64,000 bases of DNA from an uncultured bacterium (GTDB lineage Bacteria > Fidelibacterota > Marinisomatia > Marinisomatales > AB-629-J13), in assembly GCA_964518835.1 (NCBI GenBank), contig CAZFKU010000002.1, positions 3,120 through 67,119 on the forward strand, read 5' to 3'. The translations under genes were made by a program, and so were the position numbers. Numbering within the stretch: the first letter of the stretch is position 1; each line of letters starts with the position of its first letter. Shown here in pieces: positions 5,966-27,797 of the stretch. The notes under the pieces were generated by a model. It was given only the letters and a program-made list of their open reading frames with translations. It had not been told where the DNA came from and did no database searches.

Positions 5966-7071
5966 TTGCCGTTGTCTCTTTTGAACATTTCCTGGATGAT
6001 GAGCGAATTTATCACCGCCAAATAAAAACACTTATAAAAAATGGATTTCAGGTTTCATATTTTACCCGATCAAACTCAGAAATAGATTTATCTACACCAG
6101 AATTGAGCCATGTTAATTTCCCAAAATTAACTTCGCTAAAAGAATACACTCAAAAAATAGTCGGCTATTTTTCCGGAAGCAGTCCTCCAAAGGTAGTCCA
6201 CATCCATGAACCGGAGTTGCTTGATTTAGCCTCAACCCTGAAAATACAATTTGGGACGAAAGTTATTTATGATGTTCATGAGGATTATCCTTCCTTAATA
6301 CATACATTTTCGAGGAAAACCAAATTGATTAAGACAGTCAAGGAAAAATTCTGGTTGGAAAAAGAGAAACGGTTTTTAAAGTGGGTGGACAGGATTATTT
6401 TGGCAAGCCCATACATTAAAAACAGTGGTTATGATGAAAAAGGATTCACTCCGGTTATTCTTGAAAATTTTCCGACGTTAAGTATGATTCCCAAGGTCGA
6501 CTTTGATTGTAACCGGGGAAACACGATGATTTATCACGGACATCTTGGACCGGAAAGAGGAATTTCTGAATTAATTCAATCAGTATTAATTGTGTCAAAC
6601 GAAATTCCCGATATATCTTTATCCCTATATGGTTCATTTCGGACAAATGATTATCAAAATGAAATACTAGCATTAATAAAGCAATTGTCTCTTGATCAAC
6701 ATATAAACTGGTATGGACAAATAAATCATGAAGAGATTTGGGAAAAATTATCTGAATCCTCAGTTGGTGTAATTCCATTTCTTGATAAGCCACTTACCAG
6801 GTTGGGGACACCAACGAAACTGTTTGAATATATGGCTTCAGGTTGTCGTATTGTAGCATCAAACCTTCCCCCTATGAAACGATTTGATGTTAATGGAATT
6901 TTAATGGTTTCACCCGGTAATATTAAAAACCTTAGTCAATGTTTAGTTGAAGCACTGCAAAAAAACTCTAATGAATCGCTGGAATTAAACCATAAAAAAA
7001 TTATGGATGAATATAATTGGGAAACCATTGAGCATAGATTAATAGATACATATGGGGAATTGTTGAAGTGA
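5962..7071 (+). CDS. Glycosyltransferase family 4 (GT-B, GT1 clan)
   Basis: The ORF track opens at 5905. I prefer the TTG at 5962 (TTGA overlap with the wzx stop), giving LIAVVSFEHF... C-terminal half has the retaining GT-B pattern (GTPTKLFEYMASGCRIVAS, the EX7E region). Confidence 0.75.
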   Translation: MIAVVSFEHFLDDERIYHRQIKTLIKNGFQVSYFTRSNSEIDLSTPELSHVNFPKLTSLKEYTQKIVGYFSGSSPPKVVHIHEPELLDLASTLKIQFGTKVIYDVHEDYPSLIHTFSRKTKLIKTVKEKFWLEKEKRFLKWVDRIILASPYIKNSGYDEKGFTPVILENFPTLSMIPKVDFDCNRGNTMIYHGHLGPERGISELIQSVLIVSNEIPDISLSLYGSFRTNDYQNEILALIKQLSLDQHINWYGQINHEEIWEKLSESSVGVIPFLDKPLTRLGTPTKLFEYMASGCRIVASNLPPMKRFDVNGILMVSPGNIKNLSQCLVEALQKNSNESLELNHKKIMDEYNWETIEHRLIDTYGELLK

Positions 7072-8156: not shown

Positions 8157-9235
8157 AACAGGAAATCTATCATCCCAGGAAACTGATTATCTCCCGATTT
8201 ATCAGCAGTTTGATTTATCCTTTTGTACGGATTTTTATTCACAATCCAATTACATCTGATTTTAAAAAGGATGAGATTAAAAAAATTTTAGTTACAGAAT
8301 ACCATTGTATTGGGGATGTGTTGATGATTATTCCAGCCTTGCGGCTGATAAAATCGTCATTTCCTAAAGCTGAATTAACATTGTTAACAAACTCTGACGC
8401 TTCAGCATTAGCTGAAGTTTTAGAAATAGCTGATAAGATAATTTCTTTTGATTTTCCATGGACGGGGAAGACAGATAAAATAAAATATAGGGAAGCGTGG
8501 GATGTCGCAATAAAGCTCAAGAAGGAAAACTTTGATTTGGGAATTGATTTTAAAGGCGATCTGAGAAACCTAATATTTTTATGGAAAACCGGTTCAAAAT
8601 TTAGAATAGGATTTAATGGAACGGGAGGAAATTATTTTATCACCCATCCATTCCCGTTCCCTTTTACAGTTCACCAGAGAGACAGATCAATTCAATTATT
8701 ACGATCAATTGGATTAAATAAAAAAATTGATAAATCAATCATTGATATACCAAATAGTACAAGTGATAAAAAAGATTTTATAGTCCTTCATCCCGGTGCA
8801 AATCACAAAGCAAGACAGTGGTCAAAAAATAATTGGATAAAACTTGTGGAATTGCTGGAACATTCACACAAAATTGCTTTAGTAAAAACTAATGATTCAG
8901 TAAAAACAATTACCTACTTATCAGAAATTTATCCGGATATTTTTATTTTTTCAGATTCGCTTCCGAATTTTGGAAGGTGGCTCCAACACCAGAAAATGCT
9001 GATTGGAATGGATTCCATGGCAGTTCATTTGGCGGGTGTCTTAGGAATTCCTTCACTTGCTATTTTTGGGAAACAGGATCCTGATTTAACGAAACCCAAA
9101 TTTAATAACTCAGAGTTTATAATTCCTGAAAATTCATGCAATCATAAAAATAATCACTGGAGATTATGCGGAAAGTGTACTAACTCCGTAAAACCTGAAG
9201 CAGTATTTGAAAAAATAAAAAGGTTACAACTATAG
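8153..9235 (+). CDS. Glycosyltransferase family 9 (heptosyltransferase-like, WaaC/WaaF family)
   Basis: 360 aa. KKILVTEYHCIGDVLMIIPALRLIKSSFPKAELTLLTN, LHPGANHKARQWS and DSMAVHLAGVLGIPSLAIFG are GT9 hallmarks. Confidence 0.8.
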   Translation: MKQEIYHPRKLIISRFISSLIYPFVRIFIHNPITSDFKKDEIKKILVTEYHCIGDVLMIIPALRLIKSSFPKAELTLLTNSDASALAEVLEIADKIISFDFPWTGKTDKIKYREAWDVAIKLKKENFDLGIDFKGDLRNLIFLWKTGSKFRIGFNGTGGNYFITHPFPFPFTVHQRDRSIQLLRSIGLNKKIDKSIIDIPNSTSDKKDFIVLHPGANHKARQWSKNNWIKLVELLEHSHKIALVKTNDSVKTITYLSEIYPDIFIFSDSLPNFGRWLQHQKMLIGMDSMAVHLAGVLGIPSLAIFGKQDPDLTKPKFNNSEFIIPENSCNHKNNHWRLCGKCTNSVKPEAVFEKIKRLQL

Positions 9236-9306
9236 TATTACCATACCCTGTAAACAATTTAATTTTTTTATGCAATTTTCGGATTAGTCACAAAAAAAAT
9301 ATTTTA

Positions 9307-9337
9307 ATTGAATTATAATTATTTTTGTGTAAATTTG
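9307..9337 (+). promoter_or_regulatory. Promoter-like sequence upstream of the small-protein locus
   Basis: ATTG (9307-9310), a 19-nt spacer, then TAAATTTG (9330-9337). This approximates the FCB/Bacteroidetes-type TTTG-N19-TAnnTTTG promoter. A TTGAAT hexamer at 9308 is also present. AT-rich context, so this may be chance. Confidence 0.25.
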
Positions 9338-9343
9338 ATAAAT

Positions 9344-9363
9344 ACTCTGAGATAAACTCTGAG
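9344..9363 (+). repeat. Tandem direct repeat ACTCTGAG x2 (12-nt period)
   Basis: ACTCTGAG occurs at 9344-9351 and again at 9356-9363. Each copy contains the mini-palindrome CTCnGAG. It lies just downstream of the promoter-like sequence. Function unknown. Confidence 0.5.
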
Positions 9364-9393
9364 CACCAAACATATAAAAATCATTAGATTTGG

Positions 9394-9423
9394 AAAAAAA
9401 CGGGGATACGTATCCCCGTTTTT
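9394..9423. terminator. Palindromic intrinsic-terminator-like hairpin (A-tract / stem / T-tract)
   Basis: AAAAAAA-CGGGGAT-ACGT-ATCCCCG-TTTTT. Perfect 18-nt palindrome at 9401-9418, flanked by A7 and T5. It sits 160 nt after the GT9 stop and only 33 nt before the next start codon. Confidence 0.6.
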
Positions 9424-9456
9424 CATTTACTACACATAAACCAAGGAGGTACACTT

Positions 9457-9663
9457 ATGGCAGATATAAGTTCAACCGTAGAGAATGTAGTTGGCGGAAT
9501 TGTAAGCCTGATCAAAGGTCTCATCGTATTATTCGTTTTTGCGAATATTATTTACGATACTGGATTTGATCCGGTTTATGGAATCATAAATCTAGTTGAT
9601 TCATTTCTAAGCGGTGGCTTTGCCGGACTATTGGCACTTCTGGTTCTCGTATCATTTTTATAG
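9457..9663 (+). CDS. Small hydrophobic membrane protein, paralog A (68 aa)
   Basis: Strong SD (CCAAGGAGGTACACTT-ATG). Two predicted TM segments. Conserved C-terminal GGFAGLLALLVL. Paralogous to the next ORF. Confidence 0.6.
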   Translation: MADISSTVENVVGGIVSLIKGLIVLFVFANIIYDTGFDPVYGIINLVDSFLSGGFAGLLALLVLVSFL

Positions 9664-9722
9664 GCAGTACGCCTGAATTATGGACGAAACCACGAGTTTG
9701 AATCATCCCATATGGAGGAAAA

Positions 9723-9938
9723 ATGAAAAACGCACTTGACTTTATTAATAAGTGGCTAGGTGAACTTACGGAAATACTGAAATCACTGATAGTGGTTGGC
9801 GTGGTCGTTGGTATATTGTTCGATGACTTTTTTGGAGTTATTGAAGGTATAGGGCACGTTGTCGGACAGTTCGGAGACGGAGGTCTAGCAGGACTCCTTG
9901 CTCTGATGATTATATATATGTGGTACCAGAAGAAATAA
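9723..9938 (+). CDS. Small hydrophobic membrane protein, paralog B (71 aa)
   Basis: SD (ATGGAGGAAAA-ATG). Two predicted TM segments. GGLAGLLALMII motif. 21 of 58 positions are identical to paralog A in an ungapped alignment done by eye. Confidence 0.6.
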   Translation: MKNALDFINKWLGELTEILKSLIVVGVVVGILFDDFFGVIEGIGHVVGQFGDGGLAGLLALMIIYMWYQKK

Positions 9939-9956
9939 CCCGAATCCCATACTGAT

Positions 9957-9987
9957 GAACGCCCCGGAAACGGGGCGTTCTTTTTTT
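9957..9987 (+). terminator. Rho-independent terminator
   Basis: GAACGCCCCG-GAAA-CGGGGCGTTC followed by TTTTTTT. Perfect 10-bp GC-rich stem with a GNRA-type tetraloop and a T7 tract, 19 nt after the paralog B stop. Confidence 0.85.
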
Positions 9988-9991
9988 GGTA

Positions 9992-10825
9992 ATGAAACTC
10001 AGTCAATTTATTCTCTATTTTTCTTTTACTGTTATTCAACCATTATATTCTGCTTTTGAGCTTAAACCTACAACTACCCTTCAAATTGGTTCGGGAAACA
10101 GAAGCTTAACTCTCAGTTCCAACAGTATTAATATTTTTAATGATCCGTCATCCATTTTAAATGGAAAGACGTTTCAACTTCAGGCATATTCCAAAACCGC
10201 ATTCAATTTTTCCGAATTGAAATTCAATCATTGGTCAGCACATTCAAATTCAGGATATTGGGCTTGGGGAATTGGAGGAAGCAAATTTGGGAATAAACTT
10301 TATAATGAGTCAGCCTTATCATTCGTTGCAGGGAAACGGTTTTTTGAGAAAGTAAATTTTGGTCTAAACCTAACATGGTACAGTCTGAATATAACAAGAT
10401 ACGGATCTGCTCAAACACCCGGGTTAACCATTTCATGGCATTTTCCAATCAGTGAAGGATGGACTTGGGGAACGTCTCTGAGAAATATAAATGCACCAAA
10501 GATTGGGAAGTCAGATGAGTTATTACCCCAGGTAGTCGCTACAAATCTCACCGGAAATTTTGAAAACAAAATTTATTTGTATATGGAGTGGGAGCAGGAT
10601 TTAACTGTTTCATCAACTTTTAGGATGGGAGCCTCATGGAAACCAAATCCATTCCTTCAAACTGCAACGGGATTTGAATCCGGAACAGGGACTCCTACGT
10701 TTGGAATAATTTTACAATCAAGATATGGGACAATTGAGTATGGATTACAATATTTTCCCCTGCTTCAGCGTTATACTTATCAGGCGGGGATTCATTTTTA
10801 TCCTGATCAGTTTTTGCCTGATTAA
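9992..10825 (+). CDS. Putative outer-membrane beta-barrel protein
   Basis: The ORF track starts at TTG 9986. ATG 9992 gives MKLSQFILYFSFTVIQPLYSA, which is signal-peptide-like. The rest is rich in alternating aromatic/polar beta-strand patterns (WAWGIGGSKFGN, LTISWHF, YLYMEWEQ, YTYQAGIHFY). No confident family assignment. Confidence 0.5.
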   Translation: MKLSQFILYFSFTVIQPLYSAFELKPTTTLQIGSGNRSLTLSSNSINIFNDPSSILNGKTFQLQAYSKTAFNFSELKFNHWSAHSNSGYWAWGIGGSKFGNKLYNESALSFVAGKRFFEKVNFGLNLTWYSLNITRYGSAQTPGLTISWHFPISEGWTWGTSLRNINAPKIGKSDELLPQVVATNLTGNFENKIYLYMEWEQDLTVSSTFRMGASWKPNPFLQTATGFESGTGTPTFGIILQSRYGTIEYGLQYFPLLQRYTYQAGIHFYPDQFLPD

Positions 10826-12563
10826 GGCAGGAACAGATCAATTATTGGACCAAATTGGAGTTGATCCGGAAAATCCAATACCGGATGAAGATATTGTACT
10901 TCTTGAAGAAATCTTTTTGATCTCGCCAAAAAACCATAATCAATTAGTTCAAAAACTTTCAGAATTGTCGTTAATAACTGCCCAGGATGTATCTTTATTG
11001 AAAAACAGTGAAACGCTATTTGAACTGGCAGAAAATCCTCAAGCATCGGAAACATTAATTACCATACTGACTCAGCTTGCAAAACAAAAACCTGTAAAAA
11101 ATGATAACGGATGGATAAAACAAACAATTACTGAATCCAATGATTTTCGTTACAGGTGGAATGGATGGATAAGATCAGATGCTCTGCAGGGAGGATTCTC
11201 AATTGAACGGGATCCTGGAGAACAAAACATCATGGATGCTTCTTCCGGTTTTGTTGAAGGAGAAATTTCCAATGTAAAGTGGATATTGGGGGATCACCAG
11301 GTTATTTCCGGTTTTGGATTATTATCATGGAGAACATTTCCGGTGAATAAAACTTTTGAGGCAGTTTCCTCCATCAATAGGATGGGTAAAGGATTAACTG
11401 CCTATAAATCAAGTCACGAATCATGGGGCTACAGAGGAGTTGGTCTGTCTGGGGACTCCCGCTTTGGGAAATGGATGGTGTCACTGAGTCACAATTTACA
11501 CGATGGGGAGATGGATTCCACAGGTATGTTAAAAATTACTGATACCGGAGATCACAGTTCCTATTCATCTCTGAAAAGGAAAAACACCCTGAAGGAATCC
11601 GTTTTGATCAGCCGCTGGGTAGTGGAAGAAGAAAATTACACTTTTGGTTTCATGGGGTATTCGGCTCTCTGGGCATCAAAAAGCAGGGAGACAAAGAAAA
11701 CCAATTCTGTTTCATTTTCCGGAGAGTTAAAGGGAAAATTGATTACTTTTTTTGGAGAAGCTGCATGGGAAGGATTAAACAGCAACCGTATTTTTCTGGG
11801 TGCAAAACTGCCGGTTCCCCGGGGTCTGTATCTCATGTCATTTCGACATTATGATGGGATTTTTCAGTCATATCGCTCTAATCCTTTTGGTGAGTGGTCC
11901 AATGCAGGTGAGACGGGAATTTTTCAAGGGTTGATGATTCGATTGGGCAAGAACCGAGTCACAGTATTTAGTGATATATTTGGAAAACACCAGAATTCTT
12001 CATTATCCCATTTTAGTACAATGGGGATCGAATCAGGTTTGAGATGGGAAATTCGGTATTCTTCTTTTCGGTGGAGAATTCAGTGGAAACAATCATGGAA
12101 ATCAAATGGGGAAAATTATTATTATCTTCCGTCTGGTGGGTTGAGTTATAAAAACAGTGAATCTGTAAAGGGTACATTTTATTATAATTCTGAGAATGGG
12201 TTTCTGACTAATAAATTTGAAATTTCTTCGACTAAATTTGAAAATGACTTTGAATGGTTTAAAAGCATTGGTGTACAGGAAAAAATTACTGCTTCATTTG
12301 AAACCATTTCCTTGGAATTGCAATGGATTATAATTCAGAGTAATGACTATGCATCACGACTTTATTTTTGGGATGTAAATCTTCCCGGTGAAATGCGCAA
12401 CCGTGTGTTTAGTTATGACAGTCATTCCCCGGCAGTTAAATGTATGTTTTATTCAAGCACCTCAACCCGAATAGGAATGCGGTACCGACTTATTTGGGAT
12501 GGATTTACATTTCATCCTGACCCTCATCAGGAAGGTGCATTGATGATTGAGGCAAGTTTTTAA
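10740..12563 (+). CDS. Large secreted/outer-membrane beta-rich protein with a degenerate helix-hairpin-helix-like N-terminal region
   Basis: About 607 aa. Start uncertain (ATG 10725 or 10740; both overlap the upstream gene by more than 80 nt). Hydrophobic leader RRGFIFILISFCLIKAG. N-terminal helical region (LSELSLITAQDVSLL) resembles ComEA-type HhH. The central KWILGDHQVISGFGLLSW and the W/Y/G-rich remainder resemble a widespread FCB family of unknown function, from memory only. Confidence 0.5.
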   Translation: MDYNIFPCFSVILIRRGFIFILISFCLIKAGTDQLLDQIGVDPENPIPDEDIVLLEEIFLISPKNHNQLVQKLSELSLITAQDVSLLKNSETLFELAENPQASETLITILTQLAKQKPVKNDNGWIKQTITESNDFRYRWNGWIRSDALQGGFSIERDPGEQNIMDASSGFVEGEISNVKWILGDHQVISGFGLLSWRTFPVNKTFEAVSSINRMGKGLTAYKSSHESWGYRGVGLSGDSRFGKWMVSLSHNLHDGEMDSTGMLKITDTGDHSSYSSLKRKNTLKESVLISRWVVEEENYTFGFMGYSALWASKSRETKKTNSVSFSGELKGKLITFFGEAAWEGLNSNRIFLGAKLPVPRGLYLMSFRHYDGIFQSYRSNPFGEWSNAGETGIFQGLMIRLGKNRVTVFSDIFGKHQNSSLSHFSTMGIESGLRWEIRYSSFRWRIQWKQSWKSNGENYYYLPSGGLSYKNSESVKGTFYYNSENGFLTNKFEISSTKFENDFEWFKSIGVQEKITASFETISLELQWIIIQSNDYASRLYFWDVNLPGEMRNRVFSYDSHSPAVKCMFYSSTSTRIGMRYRLIWDGFTFHPDPHQEGALMIEASF

Positions 12564-12609
12564 CTGCCTCCTTGGAAAAAATAGACTTAACGGAATAATT
12601 TCACACTAT

Positions 12610-14094
12610 ATGAAAACAATTTTGTTCAAAACTTTCCCGCTTTTTCTTTTTATGTCATATGTATGTGGGACTTCAATTGGTGTCATTTTCCCCGGTCAAA
12701 ACAGTGTTGAAGAATTAAAAACAATGGTGTATGGGAATCAGGTATATTGTTCGACAAATGATCTATCAAGAATATTAAAATGCGGGTTTTATCATAGTGA
12801 TAAAAGGGGAAAAATCGTACTTTATATTGAAAATCGAAGAGTGAAGGTTTCAGCTCAATCCAGTTTTGTTCTTGTAGATGATCATGTGTACCAGATTCCC
12901 AATCCCGGCATTGGAATGGAAACAGATATTTTTCTTCCTGCAACCGGATTTTTCACTGTTCTAAAATCATCTGTGTTCCCCGGATTGCATTATGATTCCC
13001 AGAAAAAAATCCTTGAAATTGATGTTAAAGGATTCAATATAAATAAGGTGGAGATTGACGAAAAAGCCAATGGCACCATCCTTTATATCAAAACAAGAGA
13101 AGAATTTCCCGAAGGGCATATTAGTGCATTCAAACACAAAAACGGATGGTTTTACGTCACGGTGAAAGGAGGAATAATTGATTCTGAGAAAGTAGAAAAA
13201 ACATATACCCGGGGAAACGTGAGGAAGGTGTCGGCAGATCAGTTAAGTGAATCGGCACAATTGGCTTTTAAGCTGGGGTCCGAAATTGAAGGACATGAAT
13301 TATATCAGACAGAGCATCCATCAGAGATTGTTATCACACTGAGGACACCCATTGAAAATAATCTCTATATTAAATCAATGAAAAACCAATGGTTTCTGGA
13401 CACAGTTGTATTGGATGCAGGACACGGAGGGAAAGATGGTGGAACACGAGGGAAAAGGGGGACGAAGGAAAAAGACATCACTTTAGATATTACAAAGCGA
13501 CTGGGTTCATTGATCGAGAAAAATACTCGGATTAAAGTGATTTACACCAGAGAAGAAGATGTATTTATTCCCCTGAAAAGACGTACCCAAATGGCAAACG
13601 AAAAAAAGGGGAAATTATTCATCAGTATTCATGCAAATGCCAACCCCAATAAAAAAGTCAGGGGATTTGAAACATATCTGCTTCGTCCGGGTAAAACGGA
13701 AGATGCAATTGCAGTGGCTTCAAGAGAGAATTCGGTTATAAATCTTGAAGAAAATAAAACAAATTTCTATGATAAACTGGAAGGTACAAATCTTATCATG
13801 GCAACTATGGCACAAAGCATGTACATGAAAGAAAGCGAAGATTTAGCTGATAAAATTCAAAAAGAGATTGCAAAAAAAGTATCCTCAAAAAACCGTGGAG
13901 TGAAACAGGCAGGATTTTATGTGCTTGTGGGAGCAAGCATGCCTAACGTTTTAGTTGAAGTAGGATTTTTATCAAACAGACATGAAGAAAAACTTCTGAG
14001 AAAAAAATCATATCGCCAGAATATTGCGGAAGGAATCTTTCAGGCAATTCTTCAATTTAAACAGTCTAAAGAAGAAATGTTAGCCAAAGGATAA
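12610..14094 (+). CDS. N-acetylmuramoyl-L-alanine amidase (Amidase_3, AmiC-like) with an N-terminal AMIN-like extension
   Basis: Start moved to ATG 12610 (MKTILFKTFPLFLFMSYV, a signal peptide). The catalytic domain has VVLDAGHGGKDGG, ISIHANA, VLVEVGFLSN. Confidence 0.85.
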   Translation: MKTILFKTFPLFLFMSYVCGTSIGVIFPGQNSVEELKTMVYGNQVYCSTNDLSRILKCGFYHSDKRGKIVLYIENRRVKVSAQSSFVLVDDHVYQIPNPGIGMETDIFLPATGFFTVLKSSVFPGLHYDSQKKILEIDVKGFNINKVEIDEKANGTILYIKTREEFPEGHISAFKHKNGWFYVTVKGGIIDSEKVEKTYTRGNVRKVSADQLSESAQLAFKLGSEIEGHELYQTEHPSEIVITLRTPIENNLYIKSMKNQWFLDTVVLDAGHGGKDGGTRGKRGTKEKDITLDITKRLGSLIEKNTRIKVIYTREEDVFIPLKRRTQMANEKKGKLFISIHANANPNKKVRGFETYLLRPGKTEDAIAVASRENSVINLEENKTNFYDKLEGTNLIMATMAQSMYMKESEDLADKIQKEIAKKVSSKNRGVKQAGFYVLVGASMPNVLVEVGFLSNRHEEKLLRKKSYRQNIAEGIFQAILQFKQSKEEMLAKG

Positions 14095-14948: not shown

Positions 14949-16205
14949 TTGAATAAATTATTAACCTATTTATACAGTTTAGAGCGCAGGGGTATAAAAG
15001 TCGGTCTGGAACATACAAAAAGGCTTTTGAAAAAAGTTGGCGATCCTCACAATTACTTCCCGTCCATCCATGTAGCAGGGACAAATGGAAAAGGATCAAC
15101 ATGCGCAATGATCGGTTCCATCTTCAGGGAAACCGGTTTAAAAACCGGACTTTATACATCTCCCCATCTCCTCCGATTTAATGAACGTATTCGGGTAGAC
15201 GGTATCCCGATCTCTGATAAGGACATTATCCAGTTTGTGAAGCAGTATAGACATAGTTTTGATGAAATTCCCGTTACATTTTTTGAAGCTACAACAGCTA
15301 TGGCATTTTGGTATTTTAAAAAATCATGTGTGGATGTTGCGGTGATTGAGACAGGATTGGGAGGCAGACACGACTCAACAAATGTGCTTATTCCAAAACT
15401 GACGGTCATTACACCGGTGGCTCTGGACCATCGGCATTTATTAGGCAGAAACTTGAAAGAAATTGCCAGAGAAAAAGGAGGGATTATCAAATATAAAGTA
15501 CCGGTTGTCATTGCACCCCAAAACCAGGAAACAGAATATGTTTTGCGGGAAATATCCAGTCAAAAAAACTCTCACTGCATTTCTATGAAATCTCCAGTTG
15601 TTATAAAGATAGACCCAGTGAAAATGAATACGAAATTTCAAATAAATGATGTGTTCTACATGACACCTTTTATTGGTAATCATCAAATAGTAAATTCAGC
15701 CACAGCAATTCAAACTGCGTTGACTTATGACCATACAATTTCTTCAGAATTAATTAAAAATGGCATGGTTAAAACAGCTTGGCCAGGCAGACTACAAAAA
15801 CTGGATAAAAATTCACCAATATTTTATGATGTAGCCCATAATGCTCATGGATTAAAAGCTGTATTGGACACACTTAACTCATTATTTTCACAGAAACCTG
15901 TGGGAATATTTGCTTTAAAAGGAGATAAGGAATTGGAATTATTAGCAAAGGAGATCAAAGGAAAATTTTCTGATTTGATCACCGTTTCAACTGAAAATGC
16001 TGATTTATATTCCTCATCAGAGTTGAGCGACAAGCTGGAAAAACATGGAATCCCAAGTCGTTCCTCCGAAAATATTCACAATGCCTGGACAAAATGTCAA
16101 CACAGGAAAGACCCTTCTGTTCCGGTACTCATTTTTGGTAGTCATTACATCGCCGGAGATGTTTTTGAATTATTTGATTTTTCCTTTGACTCTGGCGTCA
16201 TCTGA
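14949..16205 (+). CDS. folC: Bifunctional folylpolyglutamate synthase / dihydrofolate synthase
   Basis: 418 aa, TTG start. HVAGTNGKGST P-loop, ETGLGGRHDSTN, Mur-ligase fold order. Confidence 0.9.
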   Translation: MNKLLTYLYSLERRGIKVGLEHTKRLLKKVGDPHNYFPSIHVAGTNGKGSTCAMIGSIFRETGLKTGLYTSPHLLRFNERIRVDGIPISDKDIIQFVKQYRHSFDEIPVTFFEATTAMAFWYFKKSCVDVAVIETGLGGRHDSTNVLIPKLTVITPVALDHRHLLGRNLKEIAREKGGIIKYKVPVVIAPQNQETEYVLREISSQKNSHCISMKSPVVIKIDPVKMNTKFQINDVFYMTPFIGNHQIVNSATAIQTALTYDHTISSELIKNGMVKTAWPGRLQKLDKNSPIFYDVAHNAHGLKAVLDTLNSLFSQKPVGIFALKGDKELELLAKEIKGKFSDLITVSTENADLYSSSELSDKLEKHGIPSRSSENIHNAWTKCQHRKDPSVPVLIFGSHYIAGDVFELFDFSFDSGVI

Positions 16206-16285
16206 TGTAATTTCTCACCAAAGTTGTGACCCGCTCTCGGCAGGTTTTTCTTTATAAAAACCCCATTCCCATTAAGGAATCCTCT

Positions 16286-17533
16286 ATGGATGTAAATGAA
16301 TTAAAATCTTTAAAAATTAAAGAGCTTACAAAATTATCACAGGATATCGGTGTTCAATCTGTTTCCGGTTTGAATAAGCAGGAGTTGATTGTTCGAATCC
16401 TTAAAGCCCAGGCTGAAAAGGATGGAGTATTGTATTCCAAAGGTGTGCTGGAAGTCATGTCCGATGGATACGGATTCCTTCGCAGTCCTGATTTCAATTA
16501 TTTACCGGGACCGGATGATATTTATGTAAGCCCCTCCCAAATTAAAAGATTTGGTCTGCGTACCGGTCACCTCATATCCGGACAGATAAGACCGCCAAAG
16601 ACCAAAGAACGTTTTTACGCCCTTCTGAAAATTGATTTGGTGAACGATCGACCGATTGAAGACGTTAAAAAAGCGATTCTTTTTGATAACCTGACTCCCT
16701 TTTATCCGGAGGAGAAATTTGTTTTGGAGACGGATTCAAAAAACCTGTCCATGCGGATATTGGATTTAATTTCTCCTATTGGAAAAGGGCAGAGAGGACT
16801 GATTGTTGCTGCACCGAAAACCGGGAAAACCATACTGCTTCAGCATCTTGCGAACTCCATCAGGAAAAATTCATCCAAAACCAAATTATTAATTTTGCTT
16901 ATTGATGAACGACCGGAAGAAGTGACCGATATGAAACGCAATGTGGATGCGGAGGTGGTGAGTTCCACTTTTGATGAGGTTCCGGAGCGGCATGTAGCTG
17001 TTGCAGATATGGTATTGCAGAAAGCGAAACGAATGGTGGAATATGGAGAAGATGTAGTTATTTTGCTTGACAGTATAACCCGATTGGCAAGGGCACATAA
17101 TGCAGTCATCCCTCACAGCGGTAAAATTTTATCAGGTGGCGTGGATGCAAATGCTCTAAAAAAACCAAAACAGTTTTTCGGTGCTGCAAGAAATACGGAA
17201 GAAGGAGGAACCCTAACAATCGTTGCAACAGCCCTTGTAGATACTGGAAGTCGCATGGATGATGTTATTTTTGAGGAATTCAAGGGAACTGGTAATATGG
17301 AACTTGTTCTGGATAGAGGTCTGAGCGACCGCCGTATTTTCCCCTCTTTTGATCTTATCCGATCCGGTACCCGCAGGGAAGAACTTTTGGTCAGTAAAAA
17401 ACATTTGGGTAGAATGTGGATTTTAAGAAAAATACTGAATGATATGAATCCTGTTGAGGCAATGGAGTTCTTTCAGGAAAGAATAAAACGGACCAAGTCC
17501 AATGAGGATTTCATGAATACGATGAGTCAATAA
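16286..17533 (+). CDS. rho: Transcription termination factor Rho
   Basis: The ORF track opens at GTG 16226. ATG 16286 has an AAGGA SD and gives [31 protein letters not shown] (RNA-binding domain), APPKTGKT Walker [33 protein letters not shown]. Confidence 0.95.
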
Positions 17534-17579
17534 ATAAAATTTAATAAATGGTTTTCATAAATTATAAAGAGGTCATACA

Positions 17580-18575
17580 ATGGAGGCAAACAGCCCGAAA
17601 GCAAATTCGTTGCGGACAGTAACTGTTCGTCTGATAACAGATAAACCGGTAAAGAAAACACCATATCAGGTAAAAGGTGTTTTTATGAATCAATTTGCCG
17701 ATGATCAAGTTATTCCCCTGCTTAACGGACAATACAGAAAAGAATTCCTGTATCCACGAATTCAAGTGAAGATACTGAATGAACAGATTTATCTTGTAGG
17801 AATTAATGAAGGTGTGGACTCCTTACTTTCATTAAGTGAAAAATTTAACACTCTTGATTTTGGAAACATTACCTTTCTGGTAAATGATGTAAATGTTGAT
17901 GAGCAGACAGAAATATTGATTCCGTCCAATCGCCCTGTGCGATATAGATTCATTTCTCCCTGGGTGGCATTAAACCCGGTTACAAATAAGCGATACAGAG
18001 ATTTGGATAACTCAGGCAGGATAAAATATCTTAGTCAGTTACTCACACATAATATTTTATTTTTAGGGAAGGAAATGGGGGTTACAATTAATACAAAAGT
18101 TTACACTTGGCTTTCGCTTTCATCTTTGTTCCCAAAACCAGTTGGAGAGAAAAATTGGGGCTCATTTTACGGAGGATTTAAAACCAATTTTATTCTCCCG
18201 AATTACATTGGTCTGGGCAACGGGATTACACGGGGTTTTGGTACTATTTACGGATTATTTGATCCGGATGCATTTTCTTTTGATGAAGAATCACTTAAGG
18301 AAAAAACAAAAAAACAAAATAAACCAAAATTTAAAGAGAAATCCAAAAACAGCAGTTCACCAACCAGATACCGAAAGAAAAAAAAGGTGTCAAATAAAAA
18401 AATAAGCGATGGAACCACGCCGTTTAAAACAAAAAAGTCGAAAAATAATAAAAGGAAAAAGAAAACACACCCCCAGTTTGCTGATCAGGTTAAAAAAACT
18501 GAATCTAATGGTAAATCATCTGATGATTTTAATTTTAACCGGGGGAAATACCATAAAAAGCAGCATAAGTTTTAA
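17580..18575 (+). CDS. Cas6/RAMP-like protein (orphan) with a C-terminal lysine-rich tail
   Basis: 331 aa, AAGAGG SD. The core (about residues 1-235) has Cas6 size and layout (RTVTVRLIT...YQVKGVFMNQF; RYRFISPWVAL). It carries an exact RAMP glycine-rich loop G-h-G-x5-G-h-G = GLGNGITRGFG (residues 211-221, nt 18210-18242). The last 91 residues contain 29 Lys and 4 Arg by my count. Assigned from motifs by eye. Confidence 0.6.
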   Translation: MEANSPKANSLRTVTVRLITDKPVKKTPYQVKGVFMNQFADDQVIPLLNGQYRKEFLYPRIQVKILNEQIYLVGINEGVDSLLSLSEKFNTLDFGNITFLVNDVNVDEQTEILIPSNRPVRYRFISPWVALNPVTNKRYRDLDNSGRIKYLSQLLTHNILFLGKEMGVTINTKVYTWLSLSSLFPKPVGEKNWGSFYGGFKTNFILPNYIGLGNGITRGFGTIYGLFDPDAFSFDEESLKEKTKKQNKPKFKEKSKNSSSPTRYRKKKKVSNKKISDGTTPFKTKKSKNNKRKKKTHPQFADQVKKTESNGKSSDDFNFNRGKYHKKQHKF

Positions 18576-27717: not shown

Positions 27718-27797
27718 GGAATGCTCCCGCTAGTTGCCCTTTTTTATTTTGGATGTTCCTATTGTAATTTTATGATGTAAATGAATCCACTTTTTAA

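Follow-up and report, generated by a model that had tools for sequence, protein, structure and literature searches.

A gene lying directly behind rho in an uncultured member of the Fidelibacterota, here named cas6L, encodes a descendant of Cas6b, the endoribonuclease that processes CRISPR RNA (crRNA) in type I-B systems. The gene was found in a stretch of 64,000 nucleotides (nt) of contig CAZFKU010000002.1 (assembly GCA_964518835.1), and this whole stretch is referred to below as the window. In Cas6L, the two-RRM fold of Cas6b is intact, whereas both catalytic histidines have, as judged from alignments, been replaced throughout the clade, and the gene occupies a fixed place after rho instead of a place in a cas operon. 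Because of the loss of the histidines and this fixed place, a component of CRISPR appears to have been put to new use in housekeeping RNA biology, and Cas6L is probably a non-cleaving, Cas6b-derived RNA-binding factor that has left CRISPR and is co-expressed with Rho. An earlier, sequence-only reading of the window had pointed to an orphan Cas6-like protein at this place; the coordinates, motifs and gaps that it gave, as well as its counts of His and of Lys and Arg, all hold.

The Cas6b ancestry of Cas6L is documented by both sequence and structure. The window protein matches the Pfam families Cas6b_N and Cas6b_C at 47.2 and 81.9 bits, above cut-offs of 25 and 39.4, respectively, with the E-values given in Table 1, and the PADLOC Cas6/Cas6b models at ~1e-40 (Cas6 6.6e-40); no match was obtained with the NCBIfam Cas6 models. 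A profile built from 17 family members retrieved a single solved protein, the Cas6b of Methanococcus maripaludis (MmCas6b; 4Z7K/4Z7L), at an E-value of 6.6e-33 in a collinear match over residues 28-221. An AlphaFold2 (AF2) model, built on an alignment of 60 sequences, has a predicted local distance difference test (pLDDT) score above 90 at residues 11-225, and the remainder is disordered. In a Foldseek search of the PDB with this model, 4Z7K/4Z7L was again the top match (E 1.3e-18, template-modelling (TM) score 0.80 on the target, 26% identity), followed by 20 or more other Cas6 structures. In addition to the two-RRM fold (PF17955 and PF17262), Cas6b and Cas6L share the glycine-rich loop and the strands YP.(I/V)Q.K and Y.F..PW.ALN; the C-terminal RRM of the window protein opens with the strand RYRFISPWVAL (residues 121-131). 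Cas6L is a Cas6b descendant with an intact two-RRM fold. The Cas6 identity proposed earlier is supported by the Pfam, PADLOC, 4Z7K profile and Foldseek matches and can be sharpened to the Cas6b subfamily; the two checks suggested for it, a comparison with Cas6 profiles and a Foldseek search with an AlphaFold model, both gave significant results, with Cas6b as the top Foldseek match.

The active site has fared differently from the fold. In MmCas6b, catalysis relies on H38 and H40, which are interchangeable; a mutant lacking both is nearly dead, and Y47 contributes to activity (PMC3479195). When the active-site columns of 30 rho-linked sequences were compared with those of 30 classical Cas6b sequences, the two catalytic columns held His in 90% of the classical set, but in the rho-linked set one was Pro in 80% and the other Leu in 77%, the corresponding residues of the window protein being P46 and L48. 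Alignments of representatives place (I/V)P(L/M)(L/I)(N/D)G, in the window protein as in its clade, at the site of the (L/F)HxH motif of classical Cas6b. Further residues conserved in the classical class are replaced in the rho-linked set, namely a Tyr (93%) by Val, a Ser (90%) by Phe and a Lys (90%) by Asp or Gly, and the Lys of the glycine-rich loop (80% in classical Cas6b) has become Asn in 97% of the rho-linked clade, including the window protein. No conserved His column was found in the Cas6L core among the 60 sequences compared, and H157, the sole His within residues 1-235, is not conserved. The missing catalytic His to which the sequence-only reading had drawn attention is therefore a feature of the whole sub-clade, in which both histidines of HxH are replaced. 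As for possible substitutes, Y52, R53, Y58, R60 and K64 are invariant in the tail-bearing clade, whereas in deep-branching rho-linked members the Y52 position is occupied by L, K, A or T, and R53 is Gly in the representative P0148; since Tyr52 is lost in the deep branches, no replacement catalytic residue is evident. On this alignment evidence, the active site of Cas6L is dismantled across the clade. By contrast, the fold-defining residues and the loop glycines are invariant, which argues that RNA binding has been retained. A Cas6 fold without the canonical catalytic His is also found in a dimeric crenarchaeal Cas6 with an atypical active site, which is reported to be still CRISPR-associated and to process repeats (PMC3652601); Cas6L, on the other hand, lies outside any CRISPR context, and its clade as a whole keeps no alternative catalytic residue.

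The second line of evidence is the linkage to rho. One genome per GTDB species was scanned, a relative was encoded in 168 species, and the best 80 loci were analysed. In all 80 of these loci and in the window, rho lies directly 5′ of cas6L on the same strand, and the same holds for seven of seven deep-branching, tail-less and His-less representatives at 27-40% identity, so that rho is directly upstream in 88/88 lineages with visible upstream DNA, the gap between the two genes being 12-150 nt. In some deep branches this gap is only 12-25 nt, which indicates a rho-cas6L operon. The usual gene order is amiC-murI-folC-rho-cas6L-aspAT-rpmE-DUF1385-prfA; its downstream part is rearranged at six of the loci (L009, L010, L030, L068, L071 and L076), and rho-cas6L is kept in all of them. 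Overall, at least 10 lineages have lost the link to aspAT downstream and at least two that to folC upstream, whereas none has lost that between rho and cas6L. Among the deep-branching representatives, rho is directly upstream in P0134 (40% identity), P0148 (31%), P0177 (27%) and P0224 (27%), the order is rho-cas6L-ubiE-like methyltransferase in P0146 (34%), and both outer neighbours differ in P0165 (31%; a divergent pyrB, then rho-cas6L-lspA) and P0170 (30%; rho-cas6L-ubiA-dnaE). The conservation of the rho adjacency, which the earlier reading had wished to see checked, thus has no exception in the 88 lineages, even at 27-40% identity with different neighbours. In two loci of the tail-less P0134 lineage (L081 and L082, positions 8933-12900), the gene 3′ of cas6L is followed by small unannotated open reading frames (ORFs) and META-domain genes and then by secreted proteases, not by aspAT-rpmE; the downstream synteny of cas6L is therefore not fixed.

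Cas6L is a single clade, confined to the Fidelibacterota (Marinimicrobia/SAR406) and vertically inherited. Among 5.8 billion proteins searched, 1163 relatives were retrieved. The best 120 have 46-99% identity and lengths of 294-366 amino acids (aa), and their named sources are all Marinimicrobia, Neomarinimicrobiota, Fidelibacterota or 'FCB group' metagenome-assembled genomes (MAGs). Likewise, every record title that names a taxon among the best 80 of the 168 GTDB loci refers to the phylum Fidelibacterota. An exhaustive HMMER search covering 1.84 billion cluster representatives displayed a gradient from tail-bearing proteins at 47% identity or more, through a few tail-less proteins of 218-264 aa at 27-40%, to the bulk of classical Cas6b of ~220 aa at 24-36%. 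The 20 His-less representatives form one clade in 12 of 15 neighbour-joining bootstraps, with the tail-bearing proteins as a sub-clade within it. The source names of the rho-linked lineages are Marinimicrobia or Fidelibacterota except for one MAG labelled Lentisphaeria. The P0170 cluster includes WP_400166801.1 from the cultured Fidelibacter multiformis, which has a genome of 2.79 Mb (PMC11652737). At 73 distant loci, the median identity to the window protein is 59% for the Cas6L core, and the corresponding medians of its neighbours are 48% for folC, 51% for murI, 56% for both aspAT and amiC, 64% for prfA and 78% for rho. The conservation of the core is housekeeping-like, unlike that of typical cas genes, and this rate also sets Cas6L apart from Cas6b. 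In one member of 481 aa (P0040; alignment columns 280-420), the whole C-terminal RRM is tandemly duplicated before the tail, with RYRFLSNWVALN...GIGNGITRGYG occurring twice; this duplication is either real or an assembly artefact.

Furthermore, cas6L lacks the genomic company of a cas gene. No CRISPR array was detected in the window by Tandem Repeats Finder (TRF), direct-repeat and k-mer spacing scans, and cas models had no match among its other 57 predicted proteins; the earlier statement that the 64 kb contain neither an array nor another cas gene is borne out by both. The remaining PADLOC matches in the window are generic (methyltransferases and cysteine-desulfurase-like DndA/SspA), Pfam annotation reveals housekeeping genes throughout, including proS, enolase, dnaE, lpxC, prfA and adk, and neither Rfam families nor tRNAs were found in the 64 kb. 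Pfam-annotated neighbourhoods and a repeat scan revealed neither a cas gene nor an array within 8-10 kb of the gene at 97 related loci. A k-mer scan of 98 loci, 1.66 Mb in total, found no array-like repeats, a result obtained without a positive control because the type I-B control locus held no array within its 16.7 kb. In that control, a complete type I-B operon, cas4-cas2-cas1 / cas8b-cas7-cas5-cas3-cas6b, ends with the gene for the classical HxH Cas6b P0159. Considering this operon together with the presence of rho upstream in 88/88 lineages, the exaptation, possibly linked to Rho, that the sequence-only reading had advanced has strong comparative-genomic backing. Of the three findings by which that reading said it could be refuted, none was obtained, the scan for CRISPR covering the window in the case of this genome. 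Family members are annotated publicly as 'hypothetical protein' or 'CRISPR-associated endonuclease Cas6'. Outside the rho-linked clade, a Cas6b-like protein of 222 aa without HxH (P0180; L098:4080-4748, GCA_043803325.1) has an SprT/YgjP-like metallopeptidase as its encoded neighbour and a gene for a bacterial gasdermin close by, without rho or cas genes, and may be an independent orphan Cas6b.

A further difference from Cas6b is that marine members of Cas6L bear a disordered C-terminal tail of ~70-130 aa with a conserved terminal peptide. The tail is not a frameshift or assembly artefact, a possibility rejected on two grounds: a 99%-identical protein of 331 aa (P0001) comes from independent assemblies, and an open frame of 304-363 codons is kept through the C-terminal motif in all 79 loci with a complete gene. 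The family motif reads [FY]N-x3-4-[YFH]H[KQR][KR]QH-x1-2-COOH and is present in at least 114 of 128 homologues; in a longer form of the conserved C-terminus, (D/E)(D/E)x(K/R) precedes it. N320, H325 and H329 are invariant in the terminal peptide, and the rest of the linker is poorly conserved in the family alignment. In six-frame translations, the peptide occurs once per locus in the 79 loci and nowhere else in 1.66 Mb. The last 91 residues of the window protein include 29 Lys and 4 Arg; its tail, at a net charge of +25, is the most basic among orthologues, which range from -20 to +25 with a median of +7. Lysine content falls as the GC content of the locus rises (Spearman -0.72, without phylogenetic correction), in line with the low-GC, nitrogen-saving tendency that epipelagic Marinimicrobia are reported to have (PMC6143742); low GC would account for most of the lysine bias of the window protein. 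A tail is absent from deep-branching members. From the sequence-only description of a lysine-rich tail it therefore stands that the segment is real, disordered and basic in this protein, while strong basicity is not a family trait. For a likeness to nucleic-acid-chaperone tails (histone-like proteins, RNase E and helicase extensions), disorder and basicity speak in favour in the window protein, while among orthologues basicity is not kept, Lys content follows low GC, and the conserved feature is the C-terminal peptide. Because the linker is unconserved, its charge variable and its end conserved, the conserved property is a flexible linker with a putative docking peptide at its end. Many other members contain two extra short motifs, VPKP(K/R)(K/R) and (V/K)(L/F)SEEF(D/E)IE, both of which are missing from the clade of the window protein. 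Between the peptide FNRGKYHKKQH (window 18528-18572) and the beginning of the domain of eL32, a ribosomal protein of archaea (QFNRQDYHKKK in 9l94_Q), there is a resemblance at a profile E-value of 2.3 that is probably due to chance.

Table 1. Features of the rho-cas6L region; positions refer to the window.
Feature	Position	Strand	Evidence and remarks
rho, canonical transcription termination factor, 415 aa	16286..17533	+	E. coli Rho collinearity, E 1e-157
rho-cas6L spacer, 46 nt, with Shine-Dalgarno sequence AAAGAGG	17534..17579	+	No terminator; no significant RNA fold
cas6L, gene for a Cas6b-derived protein of 331 aa	17580..18575 (stop codon included)	+	ORF; Pfam, PADLOC and PDB matches; 1163 homologues
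N-terminal RRM/ferredoxin-like domain (Cas6b_N), residues 10-110	17607..17909	+	Pfam PF17955, E 2.5e-12; AF2 pLDDT >90
Degenerate active-site segment, residues 44-58, DQVIPLLNGQYRKEF	17709..17753	+	Alignments; stands where classical Cas6b has the catalytic LHxH...Y
C-terminal RRM domain (Cas6b_C), residues 117-223	17928..18248	+	Pfam PF17262, E 5.2e-23; aligned with LKYQFKTPWMAL of 4Z7K
Glycine-rich loop GLGNGITRGFG, residues 211-221	18210..18242	+	G213, G219 and G221 invariant in 60/60 aligned sequences
Disordered lysine-rich linker, residues 236-316	18285..18527	+	AF2 pLDDT 39-64; composition; sequence unconserved, charge lineage-specific
Conserved C-terminal peptide FNFNRGKYHKKQHKF	18528..18572	+	N320, H325 and H329 invariant; family motif present

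In the window, cas6L starts with ATG, and its Shine-Dalgarno sequence occupies 17566-17572, 7 nt 5′ of the start codon. A class I/II aminotransferase gene follows after a gap of 82 nt, and no terminator-like site was found between rho, cas6L and this gene. The mechanical ORF start of rho is a GTG at 16226, the likely start being the ATG at 16286, and the encoded Rho contains no insertions. Elsewhere in the window, which is otherwise 94% coding, three stretches of 270-690 nt (5966-7067, 9236-9583 and 10040-10724) hold no ORF of 90 aa or more; they are partly coding-like and may represent short or frameshifted genes or pseudogenes.

With regard to the RNA that Cas6L may bind, the closest solved relative, MmCas6b, processes a non-stem-loop repeat, so that the hairpin ligand proposed in the sequence-only reading is not implied by Cas6b ancestry. 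A linear motif, GGTGTAGCAAC, is present in the rho-cas6L spacer, i.e., in the 5′ untranslated region of cas6L, of 30 of the 80 relatives, sometimes twice (L009-L078, at roughly locus positions 9900-10000), and is placed between a promoter-like TAAAyTTC box and the cas6L Shine-Dalgarno sequence. It has 32 matches in ~5 kb of spacer and 125 in ~3 Mb elsewhere, mostly in coding sequence. As a genome-wide site for Cas6L the motif was rejected, because it is confined to the spacer and absent in the clade of the window; it is a candidate operator for Cas6L autoregulation, and GGUGUAGCAAC is a candidate RNA for Cas6L to bind. RNAalifold detected no consensus structure, consistent hairpin or covariation in 39 rho-cas6L spacers. 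A second element, the TGTAAyTT(C) box, follows the folC stop in the window (16206-16214) and the rho stop directly in relatives, and also occurs at 27764, 44465, 49846 and 1749 (minus strand), upstream of unrelated genes. Owing to this recurrence it was rejected as a Cas6L site, and on sequence grounds it is most simply taken as a Bacteroidetes-type -7 promoter element (cf. TAnnTTTG), which suggests FCB-type promoters lying tight behind the stop codon of the gene before. In the folC-rho spacers of many relatives (L002, L008, L009, L023 and others), the promoter-like box and the start of rho are separated by a short GC hairpin with a U-run behind it, which could be a leader attenuator or the folC terminator; the rho leader of the window (16203-16288) folds no better than shuffled sequence.

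The favoured reading, in which Cas6L is an RNA-binding factor co-expressed with Rho, has to be weighed against several observations. The three spacers flanking cas6L in the window fold no better than chance, with z-scores near 0, the search for an RNA ligand around cas6L by spacer folds and motif scan found none, and GGTGTAGCAAC is missing from the window (17534-17579) and its clade. In a mirror-tree comparison, the evolutionary rates of Rho and Cas6L did not covary in any special way, their partial r of 0.21 ranking 11th among 21 gene pairs. Since all lineages belong to one phylum, the adjacency could partly be inherited synteny and not functional coupling. The absence of CRISPR-cas in this genome covers only the 64-kb window, and, because His-independent Cas6 enzymes exist, the sequence leaves room for residual nuclease activity. 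With these points in mind, Cas6L would bind RNA sequence-specifically without cutting it, or would cut very slowly at most, and would act in the same pathway as Rho, be it termination, antitermination or operon control. For example, it might mark, protect or hand over certain transcripts for Rho-dependent termination or, alternatively, control the expression of the rho-cas6L unit itself. The marine lineages would have gained the disordered linker ending in ...FNxxxYHKKQHxF, and this extension probably tethers the RNA-bound core to a partner, for which Rho, RNA polymerase, the ribosome and the core itself are candidates. A bolder proposal can be put forward only tentatively, namely that in Fidelibacterota Rho has in Cas6L a dedicated partner for sequence-specific RNA recognition: a domesticated, nuclease-dead Cas6 would either bring Rho to defined transcripts or keep it away from them, and the C-terminal peptide of marine members would dock onto Rho or the transcription machinery.

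Three other explanations were considered. Cas6L might be a His-independent endoribonuclease with a Tyr, Arg or Lys site, acting on housekeeping RNAs such as rRNA and tRNA precursors or polycistronic mRNAs, with its position behind rho reflecting mere co-expression. The intact fold and glycine-rich loop, the five residues invariant in the tail-bearing clade and the housekeeping evolutionary rate are compatible with such an enzyme, and a His-less Cas6 active site is documented for the crenarchaeal enzyme (PMC3652601). Nonetheless, Y52 is not kept in the deep branches and R53 is Gly in P0148, at least five classical Cas6b residues have been lost together, nothing nearby points to rRNA or tRNA genes, and there is no tRNA or Rfam match in the 64 kb, so this explanation is considered unlikely. 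Still less weight is given to the suggestion that Cas6L is an autoregulatory or operon-specific repressor, which would bind an operator in the leader or spacer of the rho-cas6L transcript and would have no genome-wide role. Its appeal lies in GGTGTAGCAAC in the spacers of 30/80 relatives, in the hairpin and U-run in the rho leaders of relatives and in the reported precedent of a regulatory, non-processing Cas6 in Thermus (PMC12102369). Against it, GGTGTAGCAAC is absent from the clade of the window and from the 30-nt spacers of several SAR406 clades, the spacers display no consistent secondary structure or covariation, and those of deep branches are merely 12-25 nt long.

Finally, Cas6L could be an ordinary cas6 located at a distance from its CRISPR-cas locus and processing crRNA in trans. 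Several members bear the name 'CRISPR-associated endonuclease Cas6' from the NCBI pipeline, a Cas6 encoded elsewhere often serves type III systems (PMC12669027), CRISPR spacers are reported for some Marinimicrobia, and the CRISPR scan of this genome spans only the window. This explanation is highly improbable in view of the loss of both catalytic histidines and the fixed place after rho in 88/88 lineages, a divergence rate of the housekeeping kind in contrast to that of fast-evolving cas genes, the lack of an NCBIfam Cas6 match and the absence of a cas gene or array within 10 kb in any locus. In addition, this phylum, in which epipelagic members have streamlining signatures and estimated genome sizes of 1-3.5 Mbp (PMC6143742), has kept the gene.

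The Rho-associated factor envisaged here can be compared with known systems of two kinds. Modulators of Rho include NusG, Rof/YaeO, phage Psu and Hfq, and Rho itself carries disordered N-terminal insertions in Bacteroidota and Actinobacteria. In both cases, small RNA- or Rho-binding factors or disordered charged segments tune Rho loading, and a functional analogy with Cas6L is possible only; the fold of Cas6L is unrelated to those of the modulators, its link to Rho consists of gene adjacency, and the Rho of the window is canonical, the disordered segment coming from the neighbouring gene. Among Cas6 proteins, a type III-associated Cas6 represses type I-B in Thermus thermophilus, and this provides a precedent for a Cas6 acting by RNA binding or regulation rather than by crRNA maturation (PMC12102369). 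The Thermus protein remains in CRISPR-Cas biology, whereas Cas6L has come away from CRISPR and joined a core gene of transcription. No published description of a rho-linked or CRISPR-independent Cas6 was found in the literature.

The labels 'CRISPR-associated endonuclease Cas6' given to members of this family probably mislead CRISPR surveys of marine metagenomes. To our knowledge, the known re-uses of CRISPR parts lie mostly within mobile-element or defence biology, as in transposon-encoded and type IV systems. Cas6L would extend such re-use in a different direction: a Cas6 nuclease was apparently disarmed and then fixed as the operon partner of an essential transcription factor for as long as an abundant phylum of the ocean has existed. 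An RNA-tethering tool could also be made from a compact Cas6 that is nuclease-dead by nature and brings its own RNA specificity. If the link to Rho is functional, it would offer a new and testable route to sequence-specific Rho-dependent termination, for which the cultured Fidelibacter multiformis is available as a test organism, and if the role as a dedicated partner of Rho is true, no protein derived from CRISPR would have been shown before Cas6L to form part of the core transcription-termination apparatus of bacteria.

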